A stretch of DNA of 58,781 bases from a virus (IMGVR_UViG_2879469214_000007:64001-122781); one strand, 5' to 3'. Shown: positions 385 through 20,000, counted from the first letter of the stretch. Numbers and translations: made by a program. Notes: generated from the letters alone by a model not told the origin.

Positions 385-2094
385 TTATGGGTAACTCACG
401 ATTTCACTTCTTGGTGACTCATTATCAGATGTGTCAACCGAAGTTATTGCATAATTGTGCTTACCCTCAGCAATGCCTTCAAGTTGGTCAACCATTACTG
501 ATGTGATTAATCCGTCTTTGTTGTAAAGAACGCCATCCACATATAGATTGTATCCTTTGACATCTAAGCTATCACTTGCATTCCACATTGCCTTAATGCC
601 GCCGTTCTCGTTGTCTGCCAGCACTAAACCGCTAGGGGTATTTGGTGCAACAGTGTCTTTTGCAGAAGCACTAATTACCTCAGACATTGGGGATTCATTT
701 CCGCTAGTATCTATAGCTGACATCGAGAAGTTGTGACTCTCGCCATTCACCAGTCCCATGACATCATACATGAAGTCTACTACCGGCTTGTCGTTCAGCT
801 TAACTCCATCCATATAGAAGTTGTATCCGGCAATATCTTTTTCATCATTTGCTTTTTCCGCCATCACATGAACTGAACCGTCAAATGGCATTGCCATGAA
901 TCCTACTGGTGCTAATGGAGCCTTAAAGTCTACATAGCCAGTAATCTCAAGCTTACCTTTTTGAGCAGTTGATGAACCTGTGTTCCAGCCAGCTCTTACT
1001 TCCCAAGTGTAATCAACACCGTCAACGCCGGAAGTTCCGTTTGCAGAAGCATAGCTATTCATGAAGTCAACACAGTTGCCTAAAATCTGAATCTTAACCA
1101 TAGAGCCGCTAGCGCTCATGAACTTGGTATTTGTCCAAGCATACGAGTGAACGCCACCAATTGTGATTCTCGAAGCATCAAAGTCACTGTCTTGATAGAA
1201 GCCATCTGTTTTTGTTGATGCGAACACGCCGCTTGTGAACGCTGTAAGCACGCCAGAAGGAATGTCGTAAACCATCCTAGTGATTTGAGCCGCATTACTT
1301 GATGTACCTGTGTTAGTAACCTCAATCTTACAGCTTTGTGCTTCTGAAATTTGATGGTTCCAGCCATCCGCGCATTCAAGCATATATGCGCCATTGTTCG
1401 TTCCTGTTACTGGGGCTTTGTCGTTGATTGCTTGAAGCGTCTCTCCTGAAATGGTAAATACCACTTGCTCGTGCGCAGTTCGATATAGGTCAAGCTCAAC
1501 ATCTTTTGCTACCAGCGGAACACCAATAACGGAAATTCTGTCGATTTCAAAGTCAACAGCCGTAAAGATTCCAAGCTCTGTATGCAAACTATGGTCTGTA
1601 TAAGCAGTTAATCGTCCATTTGCTTTGTCAAAAGTGGATTTATACACATATGGAGACTTCTCAATTTGAGTGCCACCAACTGAATTACCGTTTGAATCAA
1701 CAACAAGCGAACCTTCGCTTAGTCCAGTGTTCACGCTTCCGGTTTGAGAAACACCACCAGTTATTTTTCCGCCAACCAAGAACTCTGCTCTTTCAACCGT
1801 AATACCACCCATACCCCTATCGGTTAATGAATATGAATACGGACATCCTCGAAGTGTTTTCAGCAAGCCCTGACCAGAATAGAGGTTAATTTCTATATCC
1901 TCAACTTTCCAAAGTGGGTCCATGCGTACTTCTAGTTGTTCTGACTGGTCGCCATTAGGCACAATTGCTTTTTGGACACTGATTACTGTTCTTCCGTCCA
2001 CACCGCGCCTGTAGTCACAATTTAATAAGTATTTATCATCGAAATCAATTTCCGTTGCCGGAATCTTAGTCGTGTCTTTAAATTTAAGCCACAT
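385..2094 (-). CDS. Structural protein with two C-terminal fibronectin type III domains
   Basis: Two Fn3-like units (APLAPVG..DIAGYNFY..SAIDTSGNES and APNTPSG..DVKGYNLY..TSVDTSDNES). The middle has an internal duplication (NGRLTAYT..DFEIDRI / SGVLTAFT..DFDASRI). Confidence 0.75.
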   Translation of the reverse strand: MWLKFKDTTKIPATEIDFDDKYLLNCDYRRGVDGRTVISVQKAIVPNGDQSEQLEVRMDPLWKVEDIEINLYSGQGLLKTLRGCPYSYSLTDRGMGGITVERAEFLVGGKITGGVSQTGSVNTGLSEGSLVVDSNGNSVGGTQIEKSPYVYKSTFDKANGRLTAYTDHSLHTELGIFTAVDFEIDRISVIGVPLVAKDVELDLYRTAHEQVVFTISGETLQAINDKAPVTGTNNGAYMLECADGWNHQISEAQSCKIEVTNTGTSSNAAQITRMVYDIPSGVLTAFTSGVFASTKTDGFYQDSDFDASRITIGGVHSYAWTNTKFMSASGSMVKIQILGNCVDFMNSYASANGTSGVDGVDYTWEVRAGWNTGSSTAQKGKLEITGYVDFKAPLAPVGFMAMPFDGSVHVMAEKANDEKDIAGYNFYMDGVKLNDKPVVDFMYDVMGLVNGESHNFSMSAIDTSGNESPMSEVISASAKDTVAPNTPSGLVLADNENGGIKAMWNASDSLDVKGYNLYVDGVLYNKDGLITSVMVDQLEGIAEGKHNYAITSVDTSDNESPRSEIVSYP

Positions 2095-2195: not shown

Positions 2196-3110
2196 CTACA
2201 GGCTGTTTTTGTCTAGCGTAAATAGTTCTTCCGCTGAACGATGCCTTAGCCCTTTCTTCCACTCTTCAATGATTTGGACAACTAACTCTCTGCTGTATTG
2301 AGGATAGAGATTCCATCCGCTCACAGCATTATAAGTTTGGTTCGGAGCCATTGAAGATGCCATTTTGTAATGCTTATCTAACAGTTCCTTTATTTCTTGC
2401 TTATGATTAGGAGACATTTGGTTTTGCATGGCTACTGCTTTCTGGAACAATTGAAGCTCTCCTGCTCGATATACCTTAACCCATAGCTTCCCATGCTCCT
2501 GTAGGGCTGAGGTTTGCAGTGAGCCACAGATATCCTTAAGGTAGGATAATCCTGACTGTTCAAAGATTTGGTCAGACATAGCCTTGTTGTAGTACGATTG
2601 GTTGCCCATATCAGCTATATCCAAGGCTGTAAATGTCCCTTCATGCGATATTCCATGAATGACACAGTTGTATTCATTGCAAACCTTTTTCAGTCTGCTT
2701 ACTGTCATAAAGGAATCAATCTTGCTAGAATCAAATATTTGACTATCCTTGTTCATCTCCACTAATTCACCATTGGGCAGTATGGCAACAGATACGACCT
2801 CTCCCTCTAAGCCGGGAATGACATGGTGCTTACAATCAAACATTAAATCGCTAATATCTTTAGGGTCGGGGTAGCCCATAAGAACAAGGGGCTTTTCCTC
2901 AAAAACGCTCACCATAGATTTGTAATCTACATCTCTCTCAGAGATAACACAGCCAAATCCACCTTCACGCTCAAACACATCAACAACTTGGGGGAACCTA
3001 CCGAATTTCTCTCGGTAGTCCCTCATGAAGTTGCTTCTGAATTGTGTCCCATTCTTTGCTGTTGTATCAACCAGCTCTTTGATTTCCATTAAGTGAATTA
3101 TTTTCTCCAT
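2196..3110 (-). CDS. Hypothetical protein, possibly a degenerate RNA-ligase/nucleotidyltransferase fold
   Basis: Motif order resembles ligase motifs I, III, IIIa, IV and V (PGLEG, VIHG, FTALDI, LWVKV, FQK), but GLEG replaces KxDG. It is coupled to the upstream gene. Confidence 0.4.
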   Translation of the reverse strand: MEKIIHLMEIKELVDTTAKNGTQFRSNFMRDYREKFGRFPQVVDVFEREGGFGCVISERDVDYKSMVSVFEEKPLVLMGYPDPKDISDLMFDCKHHVIPGLEGEVVSVAILPNGELVEMNKDSQIFDSSKIDSFMTVSRLKKVCNEYNCVIHGISHEGTFTALDIADMGNQSYYNKAMSDQIFEQSGLSYLKDICGSLQTSALQEHGKLWVKVYRAGELQLFQKAVAMQNQMSPNHKQEIKELLDKHYKMASSMAPNQTYNAVSGWNLYPQYSRELVVQIIEEWKKGLRHRSAEELFTLDKNSL

Positions 3111-3111
3111 G

Positions 3112-3954
3112 CTACACCAGCCCTCCGCTAAATACCCCTTTGAACGGGAAGTTTATTCCTTTTGCTACCCAGTCATAATCATAGTTGAATATGCCCGGGT
3201 TCTTCGGCTTAACATCCAGAACAACCTTTTCCTTATATGCATCCGTTGCAAACACTCCTTTAAACATAGGTGTGTCTACACAAGCCATCCCTCTATAACT
3301 ATCAATGCGCAATGGCATCTCTGTAATCATCTTAAGCGTCCCGAAAACATAATCATTGTCTTCCTGAACCAGCTTGGCTATTTCCTTGCCCTTCTCGTGT
3401 GCTTCCTTACAATCTAACGAACAAGGAACTATAGGGCTGATGAATAACCCCAATGGTGCCAGCAGACTGTTCATTTCAAAGCCTTCCAGCTTCTTGATTC
3501 TTCCTCGCGCCGCTTCATACAGGTGGTGATATGGGTCACGATACGGGCTTTCAAAATAAGCCTTCTTACAACAATCGGGAGCTAATGCAAGCTGGTAGAT
3601 ATCACGCATTAAATCCCATCTGTTACTTAGGTCAATTCCTTGAGAGTCAAACTTCCCGTACACTCCCACGGTTTTAACTAGCTGAGGATGACTCCTACGC
3701 GCCGTTTGCTCAGTAGACCATCGGACAGGGTAGTGATTGGTCACAACTGCATCACCAACGGTTTCTGTCATGACATTGGGATTATAAGTCGGTGCAAACT
3801 CTGCTAGCCCTGCATCCACAATGAGTCTTGGGAAACGGTTCAAGAGATAGGACTTGGCAAGCGCCACGTCCCTCTCCCATTGCAATTTAGCTGTTCCTGA
3901 TGCCCATACAAAGCGGACAAGATATGGTACGTTGATTTGATGTACTTCTCTCAT
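3112..3954 (-). CDS. DUF483-like Cys-motif protein, radical SAM partner
   Basis: LAPDCC and PIVPCSLDCKEA motifs. The start codon abuts the radical SAM stop codon. Confidence 0.5.
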   Translation of the reverse strand: MREVHQINVPYLVRFVWASGTAKLQWERDVALAKSYLLNRFPRLIVDAGLAEFAPTYNPNVMTETVGDAVVTNHYPVRWSTEQTARRSHPQLVKTVGVYGKFDSQGIDLSNRWDLMRDIYQLALAPDCCKKAYFESPYRDPYHHLYEAARGRIKKLEGFEMNSLLAPLGLFISPIVPCSLDCKEAHEKGKEIAKLVQEDNDYVFGTLKMITEMPLRIDSYRGMACVDTPMFKGVFATDAYKEKVVLDVKPKNPGIFNYDYDWVAKGINFPFKGVFSGGLV

Positions 3955-5208
3955 TTAATATGCACCCCTTCTGCCGCCACGGTCATTTGTTTGCTCAAAC
4001 ATCCTGCTGAATACAAGGTCACTTGCGGTTCCGTTATTAATTCGATTGAACATTTCATTGTCAGAAAGATTGTGTTTCTCCGTTGTTAGTCTCAGATTGG
4101 GCATCATTTTCTTGTATGCTCTTTCTGTTGTCTCATATAAAGCATAAAGGGATTCACAGTGTTGCGATTTGTTTCTCCAATCTCCATCCTCAGCAGAACC
4201 GGGACAATGCGCATTACAAATAGACCAATACTTACATCCGCCACATCCGCCTTCGGACATTGGGATTTGTCGAAGAATCGAATATCTTTCATTGGATACC
4301 CTGTCTGCATTCCCGTTCTTTTCCGCCAAGAAAACTGTACCATCCTTGGATGTACGCAAGCAGTTCCCTACTGTACCATCGCCATAAATAGGTCGCTCTC
4401 CAAGCGTGTGATACGGGTCGCACTGTGTTGTGACGCATGTTCTGTATCCGAATCCCAGTAGAGAATCGACCACATCAATAAACGGAGCATAATATAAATC
4501 GTTCTCCATTAGGAACGGTGCCATCTCTTGGTAGAAGTGAATTTCCTCTTCCATCGGAATTTGTAGCTGGTCAGCCAACTCAGGGAAGTCCAGTTCAATC
4601 ATGTTAAGCCTTCCGTTAATAATCCCAATGTCTTTCATCATCAATAGAAACTCTTTGAGCTTAGGGATGCGCTCCTTTGTCCCATTGTGCTTGTTTACTA
4701 CAGCGATAATGCTTGTGGGCACACCGCGCTCCTTGAGCTTTTGAATGTTGCGAATAATTTTCGCTGTATTCTTCCTTGTTTTATCTACATTTCCCATCCA
4801 TCTTCCATCGTTCAGTTCCTCGTGACCATCAATGCTGATTCCTACAGCCGTCTTGTATTTCAAGAACATTTCAATATGGTCATCGTCGATTAGGGAACCA
4901 TTAGTTTGTATGGAAGTCACTGTTTCATCCGGGTCAAGCTTCCCCTTGCGCTCAATAATCTTTTTGCTGAACATATCGTAAAATTCACTAAGAACCTTTT
5001 CTATTTGCTTCTTCGGCAACAATAGCGGCTCTCCCCCGTGAAGGTTTGGTGCGTAGGTCATATCAATATCTTTTACAGCTTGAATGAGCTTATCTACTTC
5101 ATTTCCCGGTTGTCTGCCCACATGTCTGTTCTCCTGACGAGAAACAGCTTCGTAGCAATAGGTGCAGTCTTGATTGCAGTTGATTGTTAGTTTCGCACTA
5201 TATGCCAA
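3955..5208 (-). CDS. Radical SAM/SPASM-domain enzyme (anSME/peptide-maturase-like)
   Basis: CNQDCTYC (CxxxCxxC), HGGEPLL, IQTNG and GISIDG motifs. The C-terminal SPASM pattern is GTVGNC ... CGGCKYWSICNAHC ... HC. Confidence 0.92.
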   Translation of the reverse strand: MAYSAKLTINCNQDCTYCYEAVSRQENRHVGRQPGNEVDKLIQAVKDIDMTYAPNLHGGEPLLLPKKQIEKVLSEFYDMFSKKIIERKGKLDPDETVTSIQTNGSLIDDDHIEMFLKYKTAVGISIDGHEELNDGRWMGNVDKTRKNTAKIIRNIQKLKERGVPTSIIAVVNKHNGTKERIPKLKEFLLMMKDIGIINGRLNMIELDFPELADQLQIPMEEEIHFYQEMAPFLMENDLYYAPFIDVVDSLLGFGYRTCVTTQCDPYHTLGERPIYGDGTVGNCLRTSKDGTVFLAEKNGNADRVSNERYSILRQIPMSEGGCGGCKYWSICNAHCPGSAEDGDWRNKSQHCESLYALYETTERAYKKMMPNLRLTTEKHNLSDNEMFNRINNGTASDLVFSRMFEQTNDRGGRRGAY

Positions 5209-5214
5209 AATTCC

Positions 5215-5934
5215 TCACTCCCTTATGTCGATTCCGCGAAGTATAATCCCTCTTGGTCCTTGTTCAATATTCATGGTTTCAGCTCCGTTGTTCCCCATAA
5301 TTGCTTTCGCGTGAGGACGATACGCTACATCACTTGGCAATGGCATGAGATGGTCTGATTCAGCCACCTTCCAGAACAATCTGAAATGCGGTTGCTTCGG
5401 AAATTGCACTCTATGCAAATGCTTGCTTGTCCATGTGTGTATTCTGCCTGACTCTGCTTCTACAGAATTTAAGCTGAACTTATCAGAGTTTTCCGTCATG
5501 TATCTCCTGAACTCCACATGGTTCATTCCCGGCATGTTAACCGAATCTTCAATAGTTAGTGACTTGTCTGTGTCCAAAAACTCTGTCTTTATCTGACCGT
5601 CAATTCCATCACCAAGCCCGACCATCGTATGAAAGATGTCGTCTGCATCTGGTGGGAATCCTGAGCCATCGCAATGCCAGTCACTAGTAGGCACATGTAT
5701 CAATGAACCAGCCAGATAATGAATGGTAATATAGCAGTTAACATATTTTCGATTATGTCGTAATGGCGTATTGTCTAATAGCCATCTATTAATTTCTCCG
5801 CCGCTTCTATAAAGCTCATTAGCGTCTATTCTTATACCCCAAGGGCTTCTTAGCATCTCTATAAAAGAGAAGGGGAGCACTAATCTCTCCCCGATTTCCA
5901 CACTTGAGATACCTTTTAAGTCAAGCTGATACAT
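5215..5934 (-). CDS. Fe(II)/2OG oxygenase-like paralog 6
   Basis: WHCDG ... HLHR facial triad and FRLFWKVAESD strand; paralogous to the neighbouring genes. Confidence 0.75.
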   Translation of the reverse strand: MYQLDLKGISSVEIGERLVLPFSFIEMLRSPWGIRIDANELYRSGGEINRWLLDNTPLRHNRKYVNCYITIHYLAGSLIHVPTSDWHCDGSGFPPDADDIFHTMVGLGDGIDGQIKTEFLDTDKSLTIEDSVNMPGMNHVEFRRYMTENSDKFSLNSVEAESGRIHTWTSKHLHRVQFPKQPHFRLFWKVAESDHLMPLPSDVAYRPHAKAIMGNNGAETMNIEQGPRGIILRGIDIRE

Positions 5935-5945
5935 AGCTACTCTCC

Positions 5946-6641
5946 TTAGTATTTATCTCTGATAATTACTCCCCATTGCTTGCTATGCTCCAAGCAAAGT
6001 GCTTTATCTCCGCGATTCCCTTGGAAAACAAATTGCTCCCATCGTCTGGAATTAGCCAGCCTATCAGCCTTGTGATAATCGGATTCCCTGATTTCAAAGA
6101 AGAATCGAAACTCTGGCTTTTCAACTACCCCAACGCGATGAACATGTTGGCACGTCATGGTGACGAAGCGATTCGGCTCAATTTGCTTCGGCTTGAAACC
6201 GTATTTGTGCTGAACGGATTCGAAGTATCCCATTAGCTCTCTATGCCCCATGCGGGAAACATCGAACTCCTCTTCAACTTCGATTTGGTTCTCTAAAAAC
6301 TCCGTTAATAAGTTACTTGAATCTCCAACCAGCAAATGCGTAATATCTCCTGAATGCATAACAGGGACATCATGACCGTCTACATGCCACTCTGTAGTGT
6401 TTACCGGACAATATCCCGGCTTAATAAACTGCATTTGCACACGAACGGAATAGTATTTCTTTGAATGTGTTAGCGGAGCACTATCAATAATTTTCCTTAA
6501 GTTCTCCCCGCCCAATCTATATACATCGTCGATTTCTGCACGAACGAAAGTTGGCATTGAAAGCAATTCCGCCAAGTTCGGCATGTCAATCTCTGGACCA
6601 ATCCCCAAACTGTCAAACCCAAGAAGTGTTGTTTTATGCAA
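5946..6641 (-). CDS. Fe(II)/2OG oxygenase-like paralog 5
   Basis: WHVDG ... HVHR and FRFFFEIRESD; TTG start. Confidence 0.75.
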   Translation of the reverse strand: MHKTTLLGFDSLGIGPEIDMPNLAELLSMPTFVRAEIDDVYRLGGENLRKIIDSAPLTHSKKYYSVRVQMQFIKPGYCPVNTTEWHVDGHDVPVMHSGDITHLLVGDSSNLLTEFLENQIEVEEEFDVSRMGHRELMGYFESVQHKYGFKPKQIEPNRFVTMTCQHVHRVGVVEKPEFRFFFEIRESDYHKADRLANSRRWEQFVFQGNRGDKALCLEHSKQWGVIIRDKY

Positions 6642-6675
6642 AGCCTTTCCCTTCCTCTCTTGAATTATAATTATA

Positions 6676-7380
6676 TTATAACATATTTAATGCTCTTAAC
6701 ACAATGCCGCGCTCGATGTGCTCAAGATTAATTGCTGAGACATCTCTATTCTTTAGCCAAACCTCCGAGTGCTTACCTCTTGCCTTCTCCAATGGATTTG
6801 ACTGGTCGAAGTTCGACTCACGGACTATCATGGAGAATCTAAAGCACGGCTTTGATGGCGCATCAGGTACTCTGTGCAAGTGCCTTGAATTAAAGGTTAC
6901 AAATGTATCCTGTGGTATTTCCCTTGCTTTGAAATTTTCAATCCTGTGTTTATTTTCCTCGATGTATCTTCTGAACTCATAATGGTCTAAATCCTTAACC
7001 GAGTCATCAGCTTCAAGAATTGCTGGTTCTGCTAAAAATTCCGTTACTAAATCCGTGTAGCCGATAAGGATGTGAAACTTTTCATCAAACGAGTAATACG
7101 GACATCCCATAGAGCCGTCACAATGCCAGTCTGTGGTTCTCATGGCTACGGTCTGTGGCGTAAGGCACTTCAAGTCTACAGTCACACATATATTATTATA
7201 CTCATGCGTTATTGGAACCTGATTTAAGAGCCATTGATTAAATTCTCCACCGTGCCTATAGAAATCATCAACATCTGCCCTTGTAAACATTGGGCTTCTC
7301 AAGATTTCAGCAATCTTTGGTAGCTCGATTTTATTTCCAATCCCTAGTGTGTCATATCCCTCAAACAAAAGTTTTTCCAA
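6676..7380 (-). CDS. Fe(II)/2OG oxygenase-like paralog 4
   Basis: WHCDG ... HLHR and FRFSMIVRESN; TTG start. Confidence 0.75.
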   Translation of the reverse strand: MEKLLFEGYDTLGIGNKIELPKIAEILRSPMFTRADVDDFYRHGGEFNQWLLNQVPITHEYNNICVTVDLKCLTPQTVAMRTTDWHCDGSMGCPYYSFDEKFHILIGYTDLVTEFLAEPAILEADDSVKDLDHYEFRRYIEENKHRIENFKAREIPQDTFVTFNSRHLHRVPDAPSKPCFRFSMIVRESNFDQSNPLEKARGKHSEVWLKNRDVSAINLEHIERGIVLRALNML

Positions 7381-7397
7381 ACCTTTACCATTCCTTT

Positions 7398-8195
7398 CTA
7401 GTATCCATCTGTGTGCGGCGTTCCCGGTGAATCGCTGTGCATTGTGCCGTCACTGTGGTTAATCCCATCGCTATGTGGTCTTGCATCATTATGGACAGCT
7501 TCGTGATATATACTTCCGTCTGCATGGTCGCCACCGTCCATATGTGGAGAACCATCGCCATGATACCCTCCGCCATCTGAGTGCGGTGCTCCATCGCCAT
7601 GGTAATTACCTCCATCAGAGTGAGGTCTACTGTCACCATGATACTTCTGAGGTGAGATATAATCATCGTGATAAGTTCCATCGCTGTGTGGAGAAATGTA
7701 ATCGCTGTGCATGGAGCTATCGGTATGCGGTGAAATATAATCGCTGTGCATCAATCCATCGGAGTGGAAGTTGGTGCCGTCAGCGTGCATACTCGAATAT
7801 TCCGGCGTGATGCTATCGCTGTGTAAATACGAGTCTGCGTGTCCGCCTGTTCCATCCGAGTGTGGGCTACCATCGCTATGCCCTGATGCCGGAGTATCAG
7901 AGTGAATTTTTCGTTTGTTTTTAGTTGACTCAGAAATCCAATACGGTCTGTCTCCTTCTAGCCATATGCTCCCCGATATTGCTCCGGCAATCTGCCCCAT
8001 ATTCAAGCTTGAGCAGACCCTATGGTTTCTTGAAGCGTCGATATAATGCAAGTCTTCTCCCTGAATCCATATGCTTGCAGGAATTGCATTTGAAACCGTC
8101 CCTAGATTTGACCCTGCATGATAACGGGTCACGCCTGTATTGTCTACCCAATAAAAATAGCTTCCGTCAACCCAACATGAGCCTACTACTGCCAA
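7398..8195 (-). CDS. His-X-Asp repeat protein (candidate modified substrate/precursor or virion appendage)
   Basis: The N-terminal ~95 aa hold three (G/A)S(C/I)W-x-x-G repeats. Residues 98-263 hold 24 HxD motifs (hand count) in a Gly/Ser/Pro/Tyr-rich background. Confidence 0.85.
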   Translation of the reverse strand: MAVVGSCWVDGSYFYWVDNTGVTRYHAGSNLGTVSNAIPASIWIQGEDLHYIDASRNHRVCSSLNMGQIAGAISGSIWLEGDRPYWISESTKNKRKIHSDTPASGHSDGSPHSDGTGGHADSYLHSDSITPEYSSMHADGTNFHSDGLMHSDYISPHTDSSMHSDYISPHSDGTYHDDYISPQKYHGDSRPHSDGGNYHGDGAPHSDGGGYHGDGSPHMDGGDHADGSIYHEAVHNDARPHSDGINHSDGTMHSDSPGTPHTDGY

Positions 8196-8207: not shown

Positions 8208-8885
8208 TTATAAGTGTATGAAGAATCGGTCTTCTTCTGAGTTGATAATATTCTTTGTTGGCTTGCCGACCTCCGAATAAATATAGGAGCCTAATAGCCT
8301 TGACTTGGAGATATGCTGGCTTGGCAATTCGTCAGATTCGCAAATACGGAACATGAATCTAAACTCTTCCTTTTCGGGATTGGTGGCTCTATGAGCATGA
8401 CCAGCAGTAAATTCAACGAACTGATTGGCTGGTATTCTTTTCCCAACGATTCCTATCTCGTCCGCATTGTCGTTAATATACTTGTCGTACTCTTGGTGTG
8501 TAATTTCACTATCAACAAGAAGCTCAATTCTATCTTTGTTAAATTCAGTTGTAGCCGTGCAATCACTAACTACTAGGAATAGCCTGTCATAAGCGTTAAA
8601 AGGAACCTTCGAGCCATCGACATGCCAATTATGCTTATACTTGATGGTTCCAACCCCCGGCTTTAGTAGCTGTAGGCTCGTCCAAATATTCACATACTTC
8701 ATGTCATTTTTCATTGGTGCCTTGTCTAAAAAATAACGGGCTATTTCCCCTCCATGTCTATAGAAATCTTCTGCTGAACATCTGTCATAGACGGGTACAG
8801 ATAGCAGTTCTGCAACAGTGGGCATTTCAAGCGCTATGTCATGCACCAATGGGAACCCTTCAAGTATTGTTTTTTTTAATTCCAT
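8208..8885 (-). CDS. Fe(II)/2OG oxygenase-like paralog 3
   Basis: WHVDG ... HAHR and FRFMFRICESD. Confidence 0.75.
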   Translation of the reverse strand: MELKKTILEGFPLVHDIALEMPTVAELLSVPVYDRCSAEDFYRHGGEIARYFLDKAPMKNDMKYVNIWTSLQLLKPGVGTIKYKHNWHVDGSKVPFNAYDRLFLVVSDCTATTEFNKDRIELLVDSEITHQEYDKYINDNADEIGIVGKRIPANQFVEFTAGHAHRATNPEKEEFRFMFRICESDELPSQHISKSRLLGSYIYSEVGKPTKNIINSEEDRFFIHL

Positions 8886-8896
8886 TCAAATCATCC

Positions 8897-9616
8897 TCAT
8901 AGATTGATAATTACTTTGTCCTTCAATTGCTCAATGCTTTTGTAGGCGGCAGTTTTCTCAAACTTATCTATCGTGAACTGTGTTCCGTCCGGGTTTTCGT
9001 TATAGGTGAAGCTATCCGTAACCAAGCTTTGCTCGAACGAAGCCGGCTGGAATATATCTGATTCAATGACGCGGAACATAAAGCGGAACTCTAGCTCTTT
9101 TGGTAGAACAGCTCTATGCGCATGTGAAGCCCCGAACGTCACAAATCTTTCAGCTTCTATGTCTTGTGCAACCAAACCGAGCCTATCCTTGTTTTCCTCA
9201 ATGTAATGGTTTAACTCCATTTGAGAGATATTCTCTGGTAAAGAATCAGTTTCCACCACCTGTGAATTAAACTGGGTTACTGCCGAACACTTGCTAATCA
9301 GCAAATGAGTAATGTCGTTATTTTGGGTGAGCAAAGGACTTCCGCTTCCGTCCGTGTGCCATCTGTCAACAAACTTGATTGACACCTTCGATGGACTTAA
9401 TAACTGCACACGAGAGGTAATCAGGACATGCTTTCTGTTATGCATGAGCGGAATCTTATCCAATAGGTTTCTATATATCTCCCCGCCGTGTCTGTATACC
9501 TCGTCTGCATCTGCATACTGGAACCATGGCATTGCCAGCAGTGATGCGATATTAGGAAGCTCAACCTTATCGCCTACTTTTGGAAAGCCTGAGAGCAACA
9601 TTTTTTTGGTAGACAT
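8897..9616 (-). CDS. Fe(II)/2OG oxygenase-like paralog 2
   Basis: WHTDG ... HAHR and FRFMFRVIESD. The start was moved to ATG 9616, which has the SD GAGGG upstream. Confidence 0.75.
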   Translation of the reverse strand: MSTKKMLLSGFPKVGDKVELPNIASLLAMPWFQYADADEVYRHGGEIYRNLLDKIPLMHNRKHVLITSRVQLLSPSKVSIKFVDRWHTDGSGSPLLTQNNDITHLLISKCSAVTQFNSQVVETDSLPENISQMELNHYIEENKDRLGLVAQDIEAERFVTFGASHAHRAVLPKELEFRFMFRVIESDIFQPASFEQSLVTDSFTYNENPDGTQFTIDKFEKTAAYKSIEQLKDKVIINL

Positions 9617-9636
9617 ACTGAAATCCCTCACTTATA

Positions 9637-10296
9637 TTATTTATATATTATAACCCCATCGTTTACTTGCTCGATGTTTGGGAACATCGTCTTATATTTG
9701 AACACATGGGAAATCCCGAAACTATCTTTGCTTACGGCAACTGGCTTTAGGCTGTTTGATTCACTTACTCTCCACATGAATCTGAGTGTTGGTCGCTTAG
9801 CATTTACTGCCCTGTGGATATCCCTGCACCCGAATGTTGCTATTCGATTCCCCTCAAGCATTTGAGCCTGAATCCCAATATCATTGTGGTTAATAAATCT
9901 CACAAATTCCGACTGAGATGTTTCTGGTGTGAATTGCTCAATGATTAGTGGATTGCTGTTAAACTCCGTGTTGCAGTCTGTCCCGTTGAGAAGCAGATAG
10001 TTTGTATCATCGGAATTAAGCCCACTTGCATCCACATGCCAATCTCCCGCTGGTTTTACTTCTGAGCGAACAGAAGAAAATTCCGGTGTTAGGTATTGAA
10101 TCTGACTTGTGACCGATATATACTTCTTATCATTCTTTAGTGGAGTTACTCCCAGCAAACGCCTTACCAACTCCCCGCCATGTTTCCACGCATCTTCCGC
10201 AGAAATTTGAACCATGATTGGACTTCTCAATAATTCCGGCAAATCAGGTAGCTCAATATAATCCGTTAGCTTAGGAAATCCGTTGATTTCTAACAT
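9637..10296 (-). CDS. Fe(II)/2OG oxygenase-like paralog 1
   Basis: WHVDA ... IHR and LRFMWRVSESN; SD GAGGGAGG upstream. Confidence 0.72.
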   Translation of the reverse strand: MLEINGFPKLTDYIELPDLPELLRSPIMVQISAEDAWKHGGELVRRLLGVTPLKNDKKYISVTSQIQYLTPEFSSVRSEVKPAGDWHVDASGLNSDDTNYLLLNGTDCNTEFNSNPLIIEQFTPETSQSEFVRFINHNDIGIQAQMLEGNRIATFGCRDIHRAVNAKRPTLRFMWRVSESNSLKPVAVSKDSFGISHVFKYKTMFPNIEQVNDGVIIYK

Positions 10297-10348
10297 ATGT
10301 TTCCCTCCCTCTTGTTATATTATAAATGAATTATAACATCAGAAAATT

Positions 10349-10379
10349 AAAAAAGTCAAGGAGAGTGGTTCCTCCTTGA
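10349..10379 (-). terminator. Intrinsic terminator separating the fibre genes from the HxD/rSAM operon
   Basis: 8-bp stem TCAAGGAG/CTCCTTGA followed by a U-run on the minus strand. Confidence 0.7.
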
Positions 10380-10381
10380 GC

Positions 10382-11401
10382 TTATCCAACTTGAGTTGCG
10401 TATTTATTAGTTCCTACAGGAAGGACAAATGCTCCTGCTGTAATAGTTCCCCTTGCTGTTAAATTACCGTTTCTTACATTCATGTAAATTGCATTTTCAC
10501 CTTGCGGAATTGTTTGTCCTGAAATACTTGGAGCGAATCCAATACCATACCAACTGTGGAGCTTTAAATTTGCATCATTTGCAGTAGCCGCATCTGTTCC
10601 GCCTGTAATCCAAGAACCGCCATTTTTAACTTGCCTAGCACTTGCACTTGCTCCAACTTGGATACCAATACCAGCTACTCCACCCGCCGTATCCAAAATC
10701 AACGAGTTGCTTAATAAAGTTTGCTTATTGGCATAGTTCCTGAGATATGTGTTGTCGGTCATATACCAACCACCATCATATCCTGAGATGTAGTAACCCG
10801 TGTCGCTTCTTACCCATCCTGTCACATAGGCATCTCCGATTACATGTAGTTTCCATGCGGGAGTATTCGAACCAACGCCCAAATTACCATTAGATAGAAC
10901 CGTTAATAAGTGTGTTCCCTGAGCATAGTTTCCGTTAAACAACCTAAAACCTCTTGAGCCGCCTGTCGTATCAGAAACAAAGTGAAAGTTCTCACTAGCT
11001 GTTGCACTGGCTCCTATGCTGATACCTTGTACTGGGAACCTCGTATTCTTCTGGCTGTTCGTTGCGATTTCCAAATGGTCAACACCGGATGTATCAATTA
11101 AGCTGTAGGACTGGTTGTTGGCTTGGTTGATTGTAGTCAGATACAAGGATTCTGAACCGCTTGAGCTATAAATATCTAACTGTTGGTTATTTACACCGTC
11201 ATAGACTATCACCCGATTTCCCTGCGGGTCGATTCGTAAGTAAGCCGTATTCGCGTCATCAGTAAAGACTGAATTAGACAGGGTAAGCTTACCGCCATTA
11301 AGCTTTAAGTCGCCAGCAATAGACTGCTCTGCCGTGTCTAACTTAGAGAGAAAGGCATTGTTTAGGTTATTGGCACTAAGCAACTGTTTCTTTAAAATCA
11401 T
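10382..11401 (-). CDS. Tail fibre / receptor-binding protein
   Basis: GNLGVGSNTPAWKLHVIG fibre repeat and a GGWYMTDNTYLR segment (shufflon-PilV/fibre-like), in beta-rich sequence. Confidence 0.7.
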   Translation of the reverse strand: MILKKQLLSANNLNNAFLSKLDTAEQSIAGDLKLNGGKLTLSNSVFTDDANTAYLRIDPQGNRVIVYDGVNNQQLDIYSSSGSESLYLTTINQANNQSYSLIDTSGVDHLEIATNSQKNTRFPVQGISIGASATASENFHFVSDTTGGSRGFRLFNGNYAQGTHLLTVLSNGNLGVGSNTPAWKLHVIGDAYVTGWVRSDTGYYISGYDGGWYMTDNTYLRNYANKQTLLSNSLILDTAGGVAGIGIQVGASASARQVKNGGSWITGGTDAATANDANLKLHSWYGIGFAPSISGQTIPQGENAIYMNVRNGNLTARGTITAGAFVLPVGTNKYATQVG

Positions 11402-14048: not shown

Positions 14049-17000
14049 TTAGTATGCTGTTATTACTGCGTCAATTATTATATTTACATCTGATATATCA
14101 TCTATATTCAGTATAATTGAATTATCCGTTTTACCCGTCCAATAAATATGACGATTGGGGCTATTTGATGACCAAGTAATAGCATATCTCGGCAAATTAA
14201 AGTTATGCTCCCATGCGATTGCAGTGCTACCAGCAGGGATTGTTATCGAACGAGCAAATGTACCCTTGAGTGGAGCTGAGACAGTAACCGTATTCGCCAC
14301 ATTGGGTCCAATTGTGTCGGTCTTAATTCCAGAGCGATAACGCATTGACTTGTTGTAATTATCATATAAAACTGGCTTCATTTCTCTGATGTCAGTGATA
14401 TTTGATTGAAGTATACTTCCTACATTCTTTCCTACCCTGATTGTAGCAAGCTTAATACTTCCCGGCACAATGAATGGCTCTAAAGGATTCGGAGCTGGTG
14501 TGCCTGTGGCTACTCCAATAGTTCCCTCTAGGCTAGTGCCATAGCCTACACCCCTAATGAATATGACATCAATCCTGTCGTATGTTGCACTAGAAGTTGT
14601 GAGGGCTACACTGCCACCTGTATACCAGATGCTTCTTCCGGCTGAGGTGTAGAATGTACCAGCACCTACCTGAACGGTCATATTAGGAACTGCTTGAGCA
14701 GTCACCATTAGTGAGTTATCCTCAAGAACACCGTAGCCGCCAAAATCTAATAGAGCATTATTCTTAACGAAATCAGTATCCTTGTAGCCATTCAGCTTCT
14801 CTGCATTAAGATTAGTAACAAGGCTCGCACTAGATACAGCCAACCTATAAATTGATACTGTCCCAGCAAAAGTTGCTCCTCCGTTGGCATCAAGATAGGT
14901 ATTTACCCCTGTTAACTTGCCAGTGTTTCCTGCATCAAGCTGTATGCGGTTTTCCCCAGTCGAATTTCTCACAACAACCTGACCAGCATTTCCGGCAGTT
15001 GTTGAGCCAACCCATAGGTCGCCATCGCCACCTATTGTGAAGTTACCGCTTGCCATTGCTCCAGCAGGGAGCTTGCTTAAGTCAACATTAACACCCGTAG
15101 GGTCAAGGTTTCCTTTGTGCCACAGTTCTTTAGCTGTCCAGTTTACACTGGTTCCGCCAGCCGGAGCTGACACATAAGAAATGCCGCCGTTTTGTCCAAT
15201 CTTAATTCCGTAAGCGGGTTTGTCGGCGCTATCCTTGCCAAAGCTTGAGCCAAGCCAGAATGCATTCGTAGTTAGATATATGCCGTCTCCGTTGACAAAG
15301 TTCACCCTACCGAATGGACCGGAGCCAGCTCCATCAAGCTCGAAGTTACTGCCACCAATGACAAAATCTCTATACGCCGTGCTTGTCTGCATCAATTCCC
15401 AGCCGCCATAAGTTGCATATGGACCAATTAGCTTTTCAGAACTTGGAACTGCTCTCCACAAGGTTACTCCCGGCATCTCTTCAAACACCATGTTGTTATA
15501 GCTCTGCATTTGATATCCAAAGGCGTACTTGGTTAAATCAATTCTGTAGAAGCTATTGCCGCTATAATAGGCGTTTATCATCATCCATAGGTCGCCATCA
15601 ATCTGTTGTATTGATGAAAGCTGTCCGTTAGTTGGGTTTGAGAATTGGATGTTGCCAGTGATTAGAGGGTTTCCACCAATGGTAGCTCCACCACCGCCAC
15701 CACCGCCGCCTGACACGGAAGCAATGAGGTTGTCCACCTGACTCTTGTCATAATAGTTCGACTTGAGATACGGTACGGCAACAATTACATTGTCGCTCAT
15801 TGCATCGCCTGTCACTGAACTAATTGAATCAAGAATCATCTTGTTTGCGTGATTGTGCGTAGGGTATTTCAGGTTAAGCTTGTGTTCCTCAATTCTTGCG
15901 TAAGGGCTGATGTGGTAATCCATAACAGCATGAGGTAAGATTTTCGGTCCTCTTACCGCACCGTTCGCAAGGTGTTGAGTTTGAATACCTGTATTGCCCG
16001 GCTGGTTAGCATCCCAGTTTTGAATCTTGTTAGACGGGATACTATCAATTGACTCTGACCTTCTCCAATTCGTGTGAAGCTTACCTGTCTCGAAGATTGT
16101 TGATGTTACATATGCGACACCTCTTTCTTCCGATACGCCATTGGCACTCAGCTCTGCTTTCACACGGAAACGGTACTTAAGCGGTACGCTCTTATCCGGC
16201 AATCCTGTATCTGGATTTTTCCTTGGGGTATCGTATGCACCCTCAGTGGATTGTCGACCTTTACCTTCGTACCATTTTGACTGTTCAGCAACAATTTTCT
16301 TACGAGAATAGCTGGAAACAGTTTGGTTTGTTGTAAGCAAAGAGTTTCTTGCATAGAACTGGTAGTCTTCAATCCTGAATCGGTCAAGTGAGATTTTACC
16401 GCTGACTTGCCTAATAATCGCTCTGTGCTTACCCGCTTTTACACCAGTAGATGCATCCGCCTTTATGTTCTCCGAAGGATTCCATGTCATGATATGACGG
16501 TGAGCAATTTTATTCAGATAAGGAGCATCTAGGGACAAGAAGTGGTCGCCGCCCATGGAAGGCATTTCAACTTTTAGTCGTCCGAATTGTGGTCCTACAA
16601 GGTAAGTCATGTACCACCATGAAGTAAACTCGATTTGAGCGTCATAGGCAACATAAGCATCTTGGATGTCTGTTGTAACTACACATCTTCCGTTCGTCGC
16701 CATTTGTTGACCAGCCATCTCAGAGCCTTCCGGGTAGAAATAATCGTATTCAACTTCCCAGTCTCCGAAGGCTTCAATTTCAATCCAGTGGTTTGCATCA
16801 TTTGCTGTGCTACCGTTACTACTATCCCTGATGTATCGAACTGGTCTAGGGTCAAACATGAACATCATTGGCATTCCCATAGGGTCTTCTGCGTACTCGC
16901 CTTCGATGGCACTATCAAAAACCACATCCCAATTTGTTCCATCCTCAGAAACCTCTAGCTTGGTTTCATGGTATGTCCTTCCATCTGTGTAATAGCGAAG

Positions 17001-20000
17001 TACATGAACCATACCAATCATGTAAGTTTTTCCAAGGTCTAGGGTTATCGAAGCTGGACCCGAACCGGCATCAAAGTATAAATAGTCTGGACTAGTTATA
17101 CCATCGACAATCCTTGTGATATCATCAGGACTATTATCTCCTTCATGTCCGCGATACCAAGTATTTGTACCACCTGACAATGTGATTTGAGAACCCGGAA
17201 TCTTAAGTGCTCTGTTCGTCATCATACTGTATTCAAGACCCGGATATTGTTCATTTATGCCATCTTCAACCGGGGTGAATGCAGATGTCTGCTGGTTATC
17301 GAAGATAATAAATTTAGGAACAAATTCATCAATCTCAAAAGTCGTGTCGAAATTTGGCGACGAGCCATTTTCAGTTGCCACAATCAATGAGCCGTTGTGC
17401 GGTTTAAAATACAGGTCATTTCTTGCTGTGTAGCTAGCTACTACAAATCCGCTCTCTGGAACAATACCCTCTTTGAACTTAACCAATGCATCAGTTCCAT
17501 AAGTAACCGTGTAATCATTTTCATTTGGGGTGATGATATTCACTGCCCCTCCTGAGATTGGCACCTCTACCTTGAACACAGGTTTTGGCGTAGGCAACCA
17601 AGGAGTCTGCGGTTGGAATTGCTTGTTTTCAGCGTCCAGTGGCATTAGCTTTTCATCGTGTGCTTCTACAAGGTTATTACCATTTGAGTAGTTTGTAACC
17701 GTGTAAATGTCCTGTTCAATTTGAGCATACTGATAATCTCTTCCTGAAAGAGCTAGCCTTACATAACCACCCTCGTTCAAGAACGGTTCGTTGATTCTGA
17801 ACTCGATTGTTGAATAAGACCTAATGACTCCGTTTGAATCATAAATCCAGTCGCTTCTGTCTGGTATCCAAAACTCTGCCCCCTGTAAGCTGATTCCGCC
17901 CTCCAAGCCAAGGAATGCGTCTCCGATATATGGACCGCTTGGGTAAACAAACGATAAATCACCGGAACCTCCGTGGTTCACTACATAAAAGCTGGATTTG
18001 TCATTAGAGAAGCAAATTCCTTTAGGGTTCGGACCAACATTAATTGTTGTGAAGGTTTCTGTTGCCGTATCAATTTTGGCTACTTGGCTTTGCGCACTAA
18101 TCAATGCATAAAGTAAGCCGTCACCACCGTCTACCATTTTTGAAGGCTTAGAACCTACTTCGATGGTACGGATATTGAATGTTGGTAAGTCTCTCATTGG
18201 AAAGAACGGATAATCACCATAAGGAATATCGCCCAACAGACCTTTGTAATACTCTCTGTCAGCCACGATTTCATTGATAATGTCTTGCTCGTTAATCACT
18301 GCAATTTTCCCTGCACCTTGAAGGGAAACAAACACTTTTCCATCCTTAACAGTTACATAGTCAGGAGCATTACCAATTGGGATTCTGTAGCGAACATAGT
18401 TAGTCGTTGGTCCGCCGCCTTCCATCAGCATTGCAGTTTTAGGGCTACCGTCATTCATTCCTGTCATGTCATGGTTTCCAGTATCTCCGTGGTCCATGCC
18501 GCCATGGTCCATGTCCATATCCATCATCGTGGTCATGGTTGAGTCTGTTGCCGTTGCCATGCTCATTGTGTGACCAGTGTGACCACCGCCACCAGTTACA
18601 ACTTCAATCGGAGGGGTCATATCGGACATGCTTCCCATGTTTCCTTGAGAGTGCAATCCTGTCATATCGTTGTATGGAGCTTTACCGTGCTTATCAATAA
18701 CCAGCAACTCATTGTTTTTGAAGTCACATACATACAGTGTATCAGGGTCGCTTGAGAGAGCTATGCCGTGTGGTTCGTATTGCTTAAGAGAACCTGTCGG
18801 TTGACCATATCCAGAGTGCATATGGTGTGCGTGTTCAGATGATTCAGTAGAACCGCCTGATTTTGCGCTTTGGTCATATGCCGCCGAAGAGTCACCACCA
18901 ACTGCCGCGCCTAATCCGAATACACCTGATAATCCACCGTGGTAATTGTCTGTCATGTACGCCGAAATTGGAATGTTCCCAATTACTTTCCAGTATCTTG
19001 AGTTGTGATTAGACACATCGACAACAGCAATATCACCTTGCCCTGCTTGTGTGATGTAGACCTTAAGTGAGTCATCAAGAACCATATCATAAGGAGTGTT
19101 GCCGACTTCCCACCAGTGGTGAACATAAAGGTCGTCATCAACCGAAGCTGGCGGAGCGTCAACCACGATAACTGAATCGGGGATGTTTGTATCCGAAGGG
19201 TCATTGTTGATTACGAAAAAGTGCTTCATGTCATGGAGCTTATCACCTGAGTAAAGCATGTTGCCCGGACCCACGCCCATAGCAAGTGATTCACCAGTTA
19301 GCGTAAAGTTTTTCAGGTCTACTTGAACGAATGAGTTATCACCTTGTACTGTGACATACGCGAATGTTCCGTCTGTGTCAATTGCGAAATCAACTGGCTT
19401 TTTAGCAGGGATAGCAAGTGTTGCTAACCTCTGTCCTGTAACCGCGTCCATTTTCCAAACTTCATGTGCTCCCGGCATATTTGAAATATTACCAAGGATG
19501 GCTTCACCAGCCTGATTATCTCGTTTCATGCCATAAGCAGAAGAAGCTGTAAGGAATAGACCGTTACCAATCAAGTTGTCAGACTGTATTACGCCGACAT
19601 CCAGACCATCTACTCGAACATAACCGCCCCCGATTAGGACTTGTCCAGTTTGGCTATTGTACACATTAATCAGATTAGCATCTAAGCCTTTAGCCGAAAT
19701 GTGCTCAGCAGAGATGGAGCCAGAACGAATTTTTTCACTCGTGATGGTTTCCGCCGCAATCTTCTCACCTGTAATTGCACCAGCCGCGATTTTGGTTGCG
19801 GTAACTGCACCAGCCCTCAGATTGTTTGTGTCAATCGTATTCACAGCTATTTTGTCACCTGTAATAGTGCTACCTGAAATCATGGAGCCGACAATAGACT
19901 CTGCCGCGATAACACTTGCGCTCAGATATCCAGTCGTAATCTTACCAGCGTCCAAGTCTTTCACTTTTGCATTCGTAATCGAAGCATCCGCAATCAGAGC

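Follow-up and report, generated by a model that had tools for sequence, protein, structure and literature searches.

A histidine-x-aspartate repeat protein of a phage tail-fibre region as a putative substrate of a radical SAM enzyme

The triceptide motif consists of an aromatic residue at position i, a free middle position and a residue with a beta-methylene group at i+2 (PMC11499958). Crosslinks from the C2 of histidine to a C-beta are made by HaaB, YhhB and HtkB; YxdB and OscB use the C-beta of aspartate as acceptor, and substrate variants with tyrosine instead of histidine are tolerated (PMC11002830, PMC11499958). ChlB joins cyclophane formation to beta-hydroxylation dependent on 2-oxoglutarate (2OG; reference 51 of PMC12912966). 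Here we describe a virus gene whose product contains 24 His-x-Asp (HxD) triplets and which is followed by a radical S-adenosylmethionine (radical SAM, rSAM) enzyme. It lies on a stretch of 58,781 nucleotides (IMGVR_UViG_2879469214_000007:64001-122781), which as a whole is referred to as the window.

Related genes have been noted before in phages. The Thermus phages Cumys and phiMa carry an "rSAM module" (Cumys_13/12/11 and phiMa_29/28/27), for which the authors proposed DNA modification and in which the HxD repeats were not remarked (10.1101/2024.08.14.607894). According to a comment in the literature, rSAM cassettes also vary within the host-recognition clusters of pelagimyophages. No description of HxD-repeat phage proteins was found in the literature.

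The reading that we favour, and hold to be probable by a small measure, is that the HxD tail is the substrate of the radical SAM enzyme, receives cyclophanes and hydroxylations, and remains intact on the phage tail. Below we present the protein, the cassette in which it occurs and the alternatives to this reading; related loci are given by their numbers (L001 and so on) where they have to be told apart.

The HxD tail and its N-terminal domain

A preliminary description of the window reported a protein in which nearly all histidines after position 97 lie in HxD motifs, and a recount of the open reading frame (ORF) at 7398-8195 reproduced its figures. HxD holds 24 of the 25 histidines after residue 97, the lone exception being H231 (in YHEAV). 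The middle residue, X2, is serine in 13 triplets, alanine in 3, glycine in 3, threonine in 2, and aspartate, methionine or asparagine in one each. The spacing from His to His is 6-12, so that 3-9 residues separate each Asp from the His that follows, and there are internal duplications (MHSDYISPH twice, YHDDYISP once). The 24 triplets compare with a mean of 3.8 and a maximum of 11 in 20,000 shuffles of the tail. Seen from the aspartates, 25 of 26 have a His or a Tyr two residues upstream.

The tail is 168 residues long, with 28 acidic versus 3 basic residues and 9% hydrophobic ones. His and Asp make up 15% each, and the net charge is acidic, with an isoelectric point of about 5. After residue 100 the predicted local distance difference test (pLDDT) score is 41-57 in a model made with AlphaFold2 (AF2) from a 49-sequence alignment. 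When all ORFs of the window were checked, none of the others had more than two HxD in any 60 residues; the two that overlap the gene, 7475-7810 (+) and 7385-7681 (-), are shadows of the repeat.

The HxD protein has no match in Pfam, NCBIfam or PHROGs, and the operon has none among phage genomes by megablast. A homologue search with the whole protein gave no hit at near lengths, and the family surfaced only with a profile of the N-terminal domain (N-domain). The same was seen in the search for related loci: single-protein queries gave none, and a query with an alignment succeeded.

What is conserved in the repeat can be seen from two orthologs that are 80% and 54% identical to the HxD protein. 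His is kept in 24/24 and 23/23 cases, respectively, and Asp in 24/24 and 23/24. The X2 residue is kept in 17/24 and 7/24, and the residues of the spacers in 70/96 and 31/85. By these alignments, selection on HxD acts on positions 1 and 3 only. Further, the period changes, from 6-7 in the window to 4-5 in the Thermus phages and 5 in a siphophage prophage (L007), with the triplet remaining constant. A pentapeptide-repeat beta-helix, an idea taken from the period of 5 in L007 (S-D-I-A-H), was rejected for the tail because of these other periods and because the tails are without hydrophobic residues.

The two fixed positions do not always hold the same residues. In L007, Yx[DN] accounts for 25 of the 34 tyrosines, against a shuffle mean of 7.6, and of the 47 asparagines 30 stand behind His or Tyr. 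The motif is loosened likewise in L016, with Tyr and Asn in place of His and Asp. Because positions 1 and 3 are fixed, the spacing is variable and such swaps occur, we take HxD for an enzyme recognition motif, and neither for a structural repeat nor for a tuned metal site. In particular, Tyr for His and Asn for Asp would fit a recognition motif better than a metal site.

The N-terminus of the protein carries three repeats, which read GSCWVDG, ASIWIQG and GSIWLEG. They had been taken for a folded domain and not a short leader, in agreement with the model: residues 1-100 have a pLDDT of 94-98. Eleven strands are predicted in three repeats of 3-4 strands, and they form a compact unit with three-fold pseudo-symmetry. 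The best match among PDB structures, the lectin-like bacteriocin LlpA (3m7h; Z 4.8, root-mean-square deviation 3.4, 85 residues aligned), is weak. Lower-ranking matches resemble beta-prism II or monocot mannose-binding lectins (MMBL; 4tkc, 2dpf, 4le7, 5gyy), and the likeness to a beta-prism II lectin is suggestive but weak. Leads from the Atlas, to a propeller or a lectin repeat, are also weak (0.84 or less), and the sole clear match in BFVD is a family member without assigned function.

In a set of 1.84 billion proteins, the N-domain profile matched 494 cluster representatives at E<=1e-3. Of the best 150 matches, 51 contain at least five HxD. The 122.8-kb virus record that contains the window holds one copy of the domain.

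The first HxD begins three residues past the last strand of the N-domain, and no linker or cleavage motif is evident. The Lys or Arg that precedes the first HxD was considered as a cleavage site and rejected: R95 sits in the last strand and is the structural Arg of its repeat, corresponding to R24 and R59 of the other two.

In many HxD proteins an extra domain of about 95 residues (MAWTxPRTW...IRDN...LPVGTDKW) precedes the N-domain, and in the Thermus phages and L009 it is a separate small ORF just upstream. In Cumys and phiMa (L002:8683-10017, L001:8584-9915) this ORF has 97 residues, ends LPVGTDRWAP and is in frame with the HxD ORF, with a single stop codon and three codons for Gly in between. 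In the phage proteins P0240, P0170 and P0249 the domain forms the front end of the HxD protein itself, and L009 has a free and a fused copy.

The three-repeat unit (GSxWxEG..LxYID..G.ER) is also found at the C-terminus of BNR, GLUG or PEGA proteins that have no HxD tail (L010:2704-3645, L022:5587-6543, P0142, P0163, P0161). At both of the tail-less loci checked, L010 and L022, a radical SAM neighbour is absent. The unit is possibly an independent module for binding or docking.

A cassette shared by unrelated phages

The N-domain joined to an HxD tail was found in about 22 loci: the window, L001-L005, L007, L009 and 14 of the 15 loci from a scan of IMG/VR with the N-domain profile. In every one of them a homolog of the radical SAM enzyme lies directly downstream, so the linkage is strict across unrelated phages. 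The remaining IMG/VR locus (L022) encodes a tail-less N-domain protein and has no adjoining radical SAM gene. A DUF483-like gene was detected in 10 of the 15 IMG/VR loci and an oxygenase in none. By these comparisons the core system is the HxD protein and the radical SAM enzyme, usually with a DUF483-like partner. As had been supposed, it is the tail on which the neighbouring enzymes are likely to act.

The Thermus phages phiMa and Cumys encode a 343-residue protein with 54 HxD and the same three-repeat N-domain (E 4e-18), followed by a radical SAM enzyme that is 36% identical to that of the window and then by a DUF483 protein. In Cumys this trio is placed behind the baseplate and tail-collar-fibre genes. 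In the prophage L007 the order is Dit, a 1009-residue tail protein, the HxD protein (819 residues, 90 HxD), the radical SAM enzyme, the DUF483-like protein, holin, amidase and integrase. A fibre gene lies directly upstream of the HxD gene in L011, and the window cassette is placed between fibre genes and lysis genes, the lysis side being taken from a relative (L003). The HxD gene is thus found in a tail or host-recognition module in the window, Cumys, L007 and L011, and such a place, in the tail-fibre slot, agrees with a virion tail protein. The preliminary description had proposed a virion appendage; the synteny in the Thermus phages, in the prophage with its Dit-Tal region and in the window speaks for it.

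The linkage also bears on the idea that the radical SAM-DUF483 pair modifies DNA and that the HxD protein is an unrelated neighbour. Homologs of the pair are located near deazapurine DNA-modification genes in some cyanobacteria (10.1101/2024.08.14.607894). Nevertheless, the enzyme has the architecture of a SPASM peptide maturase, strictly adjoins HxD tails in the 22 or so loci and is absent where the N-domain has no such tail. It also lies in tail modules, and 10 of its 17 homologs have a short HxD tail of their own. Modification of DNA is therefore regarded as extremely improbable.

The radical SAM enzyme contains eleven cysteines (C11-x3-C15-x2-C18, C258, C263, C283, C322-x2-C325-x5-C331-x3-C335 and C351), that is, CX3CX2C and eight of SPASM type. 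They include CX2CX5CX3C and all are invariant in the 17 homologs, so the protein is a SPASM enzyme. Its best NCBIfam models are AmcB (85.9 bits) and the anaerobic sulfatase-maturating enzyme (anSME, 82.7 bits), then DynA, YhhB and GrrM/OscB; the XyeB, FxsB and HxsB models score lower still. The only PDB sequences matched are the anSME 4k36 and the triceptide synthase ChlB 9gm3. From its sequence the enzyme appears to be a separate clade inside the group of anSMEs and enzymes that form three-residue cyclophanes (3-CyFEs).

These two kinds of enzyme are relatives, and a 3-CyFE is said to have made formylglycine and aminomalonate in vitro in the hands of Ma and co-workers in 2021. The enzyme might therefore act on the HxD triplets with other chemistry: an anSME-like oxidation of the C-beta (formylglycine/aminomalonate type), an epimerisation or another crosslink. 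In line with this, anSME ranks second among the NCBIfam models and first among the PDB sequence matches, and no cut-off of a named 3-CyFE family is reached. On the other hand, a fixed aromatic residue at i with a beta-CH2 at i+2, and the interchange of His and Tyr, make up the triceptide motif and would be needless for oxidation or epimerisation. We consider such other chemistry unlikely.

Some of the radical SAM enzymes have features of their own. In 10 of the 17 homologs that lie beside HxD proteins the enzyme ends in a short C-terminal tail of 3-7 HxD (for example ...HGDRPHGDKPHGDSYL). These include L007:8001-9320 and L002:10026-11276 as well as the enzymes of L014-L017, L020, L021, L023 and L024; the enzyme of the window and its close relatives are without it. 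Possible explanations for such a tail are self-modification, a tether and a pseudo-substrate. In L009 (2981-4183) the enzyme behind the HxD protein is split within CX3CX2C, after C-T-Y, by an intein-like insert with Cys as its first residue and ...SHN, before a further Cys, at its end, and the enzyme resumes with GGEPLL at the contig end. In L005, a 558-kb contig, a second radical SAM gene (379 residues) and then a 275-residue ORF, together at 4736-6683, lie just upstream of the HxD cassette, and the product of this ORF does not align with the DUF483-like family.

The DUF483-like gene comes after the radical SAM gene in most loci. The protein of the window matches Cumys_11 at E 4e-7, and in the Atlas the clusters for this partner are DUF483 and mostly phage-derived. 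Its profile found no match among the PDB sequences.

The window has, in addition, six oxygenase paralogs that flank the HxD gene. Pfam has no match for them, and in PHROGs they fall into phrog_1843, a family that is itself without assigned function. In 19 aligned copies W-H-x-D, a later H-R and a further R are invariant (H88, D90, H165, R176). The AF2 model of a paralog has a pLDDT of 94, and its top 50 structural matches in VIA, which is independent of Foldseek, are all Fe(II)/2OG oxygenases (Z 9.1-6.9). Among the tied matches are protein prolyl hydroxylases and the His beta-hydroxylase ThoJ (6zyl, Z 8.7). Foldseek against the PDB returned only E >= 2e-3. Because invariant residues, model and all top structural matches agree, the six paralogs are assigned to the Fe(II)/2OG oxygenases of the double-stranded beta-helix (DSBH) type, with the predicted fold, the HxD...H triad and a basic residue for 2OG.

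Elsewhere, members of this family stand singly amid small early or non-structural genes, as in L026:4944-5642 (Bacillus phage McCartney gp202) and L027:4929-5609 (Gordonia phage Culver gp76). In the Herelleviridae and Gordonia phages examined there is no HxD protein or radical SAM gene near the phrog_1843 genes, and the family seems to have a different substrate in the Bacillus and Gordonia phages.

It is on these oxygenases that the metal-binding role proposed earlier depends. In that explanation they hydroxylate Asp and/or His, and the tail chelates Fe(III) or another metal on the virion, for example engaging siderophore receptors or stiffening the fibre by metal bridges. It is physically plausible for an acidic tail so rich in His and Asp, and it agrees with the six Fe/2OG neighbours and with ThoJ among their matches. 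The strong preference for Asp at X3, even though 3-CyFEs take many residues, hints that the carboxylate matters in the product. However, oxygenases are present only in the window, in L003 and L004, where six likewise flank the HxD gene, and in L005, which has two. Of the 22 loci with an HxD protein and a radical SAM gene, 18 have none, the Thermus phages and L007 among them. Since the core cassette occurs without them in these 18 loci, the oxygenases are an add-on of the window lineage and hydroxylated ligands are not the core function of the family. Further, Tyr and Asn stand in for His and Asp in L007 and L016. The hosts are diverse (Firmicute-type phage, Thermus, metagenomic phages), with no siderophore system in common, and phrog_1843 oxygenases elsewhere stand alone in non-structural regions. 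Chelation through beta-hydroxylated Asp and His as the purpose of the tail was not borne out, and metal binding as the explanation is distinctly unlikely.

The enzymes of the cassette would also suit a classical ribosomally synthesised peptide with post-translational modifications (RiPP). The N-domain would then be a large leader or scaffold, and the tail, instead of belonging to the virion, would be cut into small cyclophane peptides released at lysis, acting as antibiotic, signal or anti-defence agent. In favour of this are the RiPP-type enzymology and the large leader domains in other RiPP classes, as well as the promoter-like site of the cassette, the adjoining lysis genes and a bacterial relative (L008) that lies beside PqqD genes and not beside phage tail genes. 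Against it, no protease was found in the cassette, nor a protease or transporter in any phage cassette inspected. There is no conserved cleavage motif, the Arg before the first HxD being structural. With 160-720 residues and up to 90 motifs, the tails greatly exceed normal core peptides. In addition, the tail-fibre slot is recurrent, and some members carry another domain fused to their N-terminus. A RiPP of this kind is very unlikely.

Proposed maturation of the tail

With cyclophane formation on an intact protein as the preferred reading, the HxD protein would be a late protein in two parts, in which an all-beta domain of about 100 residues runs straight into an acidic and disordered tail of 168 residues. 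The tail would be the dedicated substrate of the SPASM radical SAM enzyme of the same operon, assisted by the DUF483-like partner. By analogy with triceptide synthases, the enzyme would take a hydrogen from the C-beta of Asp and bond this carbon to C2 in the imidazole ring of the triplet's His, two residues upstream. Each HxD would become a rigid three-residue cyclophane, giving 24 rings in series. In the window lineage the six Fe(II)/2OG oxygenases would add oxidations to the tail, probably hydroxylations. The product would stay a protein, mounted on the phage tail through its folded domain, and might form a stapled filament or adhesin that resists proteases and heat.

In this scheme, triceptide-type maturation would act on a large late protein of a phage. 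Particular to the window is the combination of a free-standing HxD protein with six flanking oxygenases, the richest version among the loci compared. A wider claim is put forward only tentatively, and we hold it to be somewhat short of probable: that phages apply RiPP-type radical chemistry to their own particles, giving a tail-mounted protein dozens of His-Asp cyclophane rings, which six oxygenases hydroxylate further in the window lineage. The product would be a new sort of viral fibre, stapled by enzymes and possibly able to bind metal, and the first virion protein with a radical-SAM modification.

What the analysis shows is the motif statistics, the predicted fold of the N-domain, the enzyme superfamilies, the strict gene linkage and the repeated placement in tail modules; the chemistry, the presence in the virion and the role of the HxD protein are inferred. 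Several points weigh against the proposed maturation. A link from His-C2 to Asp-Cbeta was not found described in the literature, nor was a substrate of such size. The radical SAM enzyme stays below every NCBIfam cut-off (at best 85.9 bits versus 425, for AmcB) and anSME scores it almost equal to the cyclophane synthases, so that another C-beta chemistry, for example oxidation or epimerisation, is possible. The scheme does not account for the role of six oxygenases. The location on the tail comes from gene order, and among the related loci several have neighbours that could not be annotated, while L016 follows a DarB-like gene. Finally, no known tail-attachment domain matches the N-domain convincingly (the best Z being that of LlpA).

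If both the chemistry and the virion location are true, radical-SAM maturation would not be confined to small secreted natural products but would also build structural parts of virions. The question would then arise what a rigid, acidic ladder of His-Asp macrocycles does, be it protease and heat resistance, adhesion or metal binding. The triceptide toolbox would gain the HxD motif together with a very processive and apparently leader-independent enzyme, and the DUF483 proteins and one use of the phrog_1843 oxygenases would gain a function.

Genomic surroundings and known systems compared

The coordinates of the features are collected in Table 1. The HxD gene lies within a block reported as ten co-directional genes, with the order of transcription given as three oxygenases, HxD, three oxygenases, radical SAM, DUF483-like, 304-residue and 569-residue protein.

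Table 1. Features of the window around the HxD gene
Feature	Position	Strand	Remarks
HxD-repeat protein, 265 residues	7398..8195	-	TTG start, 7 nt behind AAGGAGG ribosome-binding site
N-domain, residues 1-97	7905..8195	-	three repeats of about 35 residues, GSxW[VI]xG..[LF]xY[IV]D..G..R, each a beta meander; all-beta
Tail, residues 98-265 and stop codon	7398..7904	-	24 H-x-D, predicted disordered
Radical SAM/SPASM enzyme, putative maturase of the HxD tail	3955..5208	-	Pfam Radical_SAM 1.4e-16
DUF483-like partner, conserved CC...C-S-x-x-C motifs	3112..3954	-	Pfam DUF483 5.9e-4, below cut-off
Fe(II)/2OG oxygenases, upstream set of three paralogs	9637-10296, 8897-9631, 8208-8885	-	phrog_1843
Fe(II)/2OG oxygenases, downstream set of three paralogs	6676-7380, 5946-6641, 5215-5934	-	phrog_1843
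304-residue protein, function not assigned	2196..3110	-	BLASTP to L003, L004, L005
569-residue putative structural protein	385..2094	-	N-terminal ~120 residues recurrent elsewhere
Tail-fibre gene, T4 gp36-like	10382..11401	-	directly upstream of the block
Terminator-like hairpin, then strong promoter-like site TTGACT-18-TATAAT (11/12)	10330..10379	-	just upstream of the 10-gene block

Upstream of the block the genes are fibres, one T4 gp36-like and two with Laminin_G. The gp36-like fibre shares its N-terminal 120 residues with the fibre encoded immediately before the HxD gene in L011 and L012. In L003, which is 89% identical, holin-endolysin genes lie downstream of the cassette. The 304-residue protein has no Pfam, NCBIfam or PHROG match; it follows the DUF483-like gene also in the oxygenase-bearing relatives L003, L004 and L005. 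The first 120 or so residues of the 569-residue protein form a separate ORF of 111-127 residues right behind the cassette in L005, L011 and L012. These two proteins may be part of the system, or of its docking to the tail.

A giant tail protein (ORF 14049-21140, minus strand) contains an insert rich in Met, His and Asp at 18420-18845 (EHAHHMHSG ... MMDMDMDHGGMDHGDTGNHDMTGM), with few HxD triplets and no regular ladder.

In general, the system of the window resembles several known ones in part. A siderophore-like metal chelator would have conserved machinery for beta-hydroxylated ligands throughout the family, and here the oxygenases are missing from most loci, as described above. LlpA and pyocin L1, with MMBL domains of the beta-prism II fold, share with the N-domain three four-stranded sheets and three-fold pseudo-symmetry. 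However, the sugar-binding motif QxDxNxVxY is absent from the N-domain, and at the low Z the likeness may be one of common arrangement only.

Collagen-like proteins with their viral or bacterial Fe/2OG prolyl hydroxylases, such as vCPH of PBCV-1 (5c5t), are similar in that a repetitive structural protein receives many modifications from DSBH enzymes. This is an analogy only, although the tied structural matches for the window oxygenases do include vCPH (Z 8.4). Collagen systems have a Gly-X-Y repeat and one enzyme, whereas here there is no Gly-X-Y and there are six paralogs.

The His-Xaa-Ser system (HxsA, HxsB/HxsC, TIGR03978) also combines a repeat protein of His-X-(small polar) type with radical SAM maturases of SPASM type. 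It differs in that the third residue is Ser and in being a bacterial four-gene system, and the radical SAM enzyme of the window scores 44.8 bits versus a cut-off of 370. To our knowledge the Hxs chemistry is uncharacterised.

The rSAM module of Cumys and phiMa comprises the same three genes. It differs in lacking oxygenases and in its HxD protein, where 54 motifs follow each other at a period of 4-5. In ChlB, a radical SAM enzyme is fused to a 2OG hydroxylase (HExxH domain), whereas here the six oxygenases are free-standing and of DSBH type.

Among the triceptides, the motifs are H-A-A for HaaB, H-T-K for HtkB and H-N-R/Y-x-R for YhhB, while YxdB links Tyr-C3 to Asp-Cbeta and OscB links Trp to Asn/Asp-Cbeta. 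The system of the window differs in its substrate, which is not a short leader-core precursor but a protein of 265 residues (in relatives up to 819) with 24-90 motifs, a folded domain and a place in phage tail modules. It differs also in the DUF483-like partner and in an enzyme below the NCBIfam cut-offs of the named families. What it has in common with triceptides is a SPASM radical SAM enzyme beside a substrate of repeated aromatic-X-X motifs, in the window the enzyme next to its 24 H-x-D.

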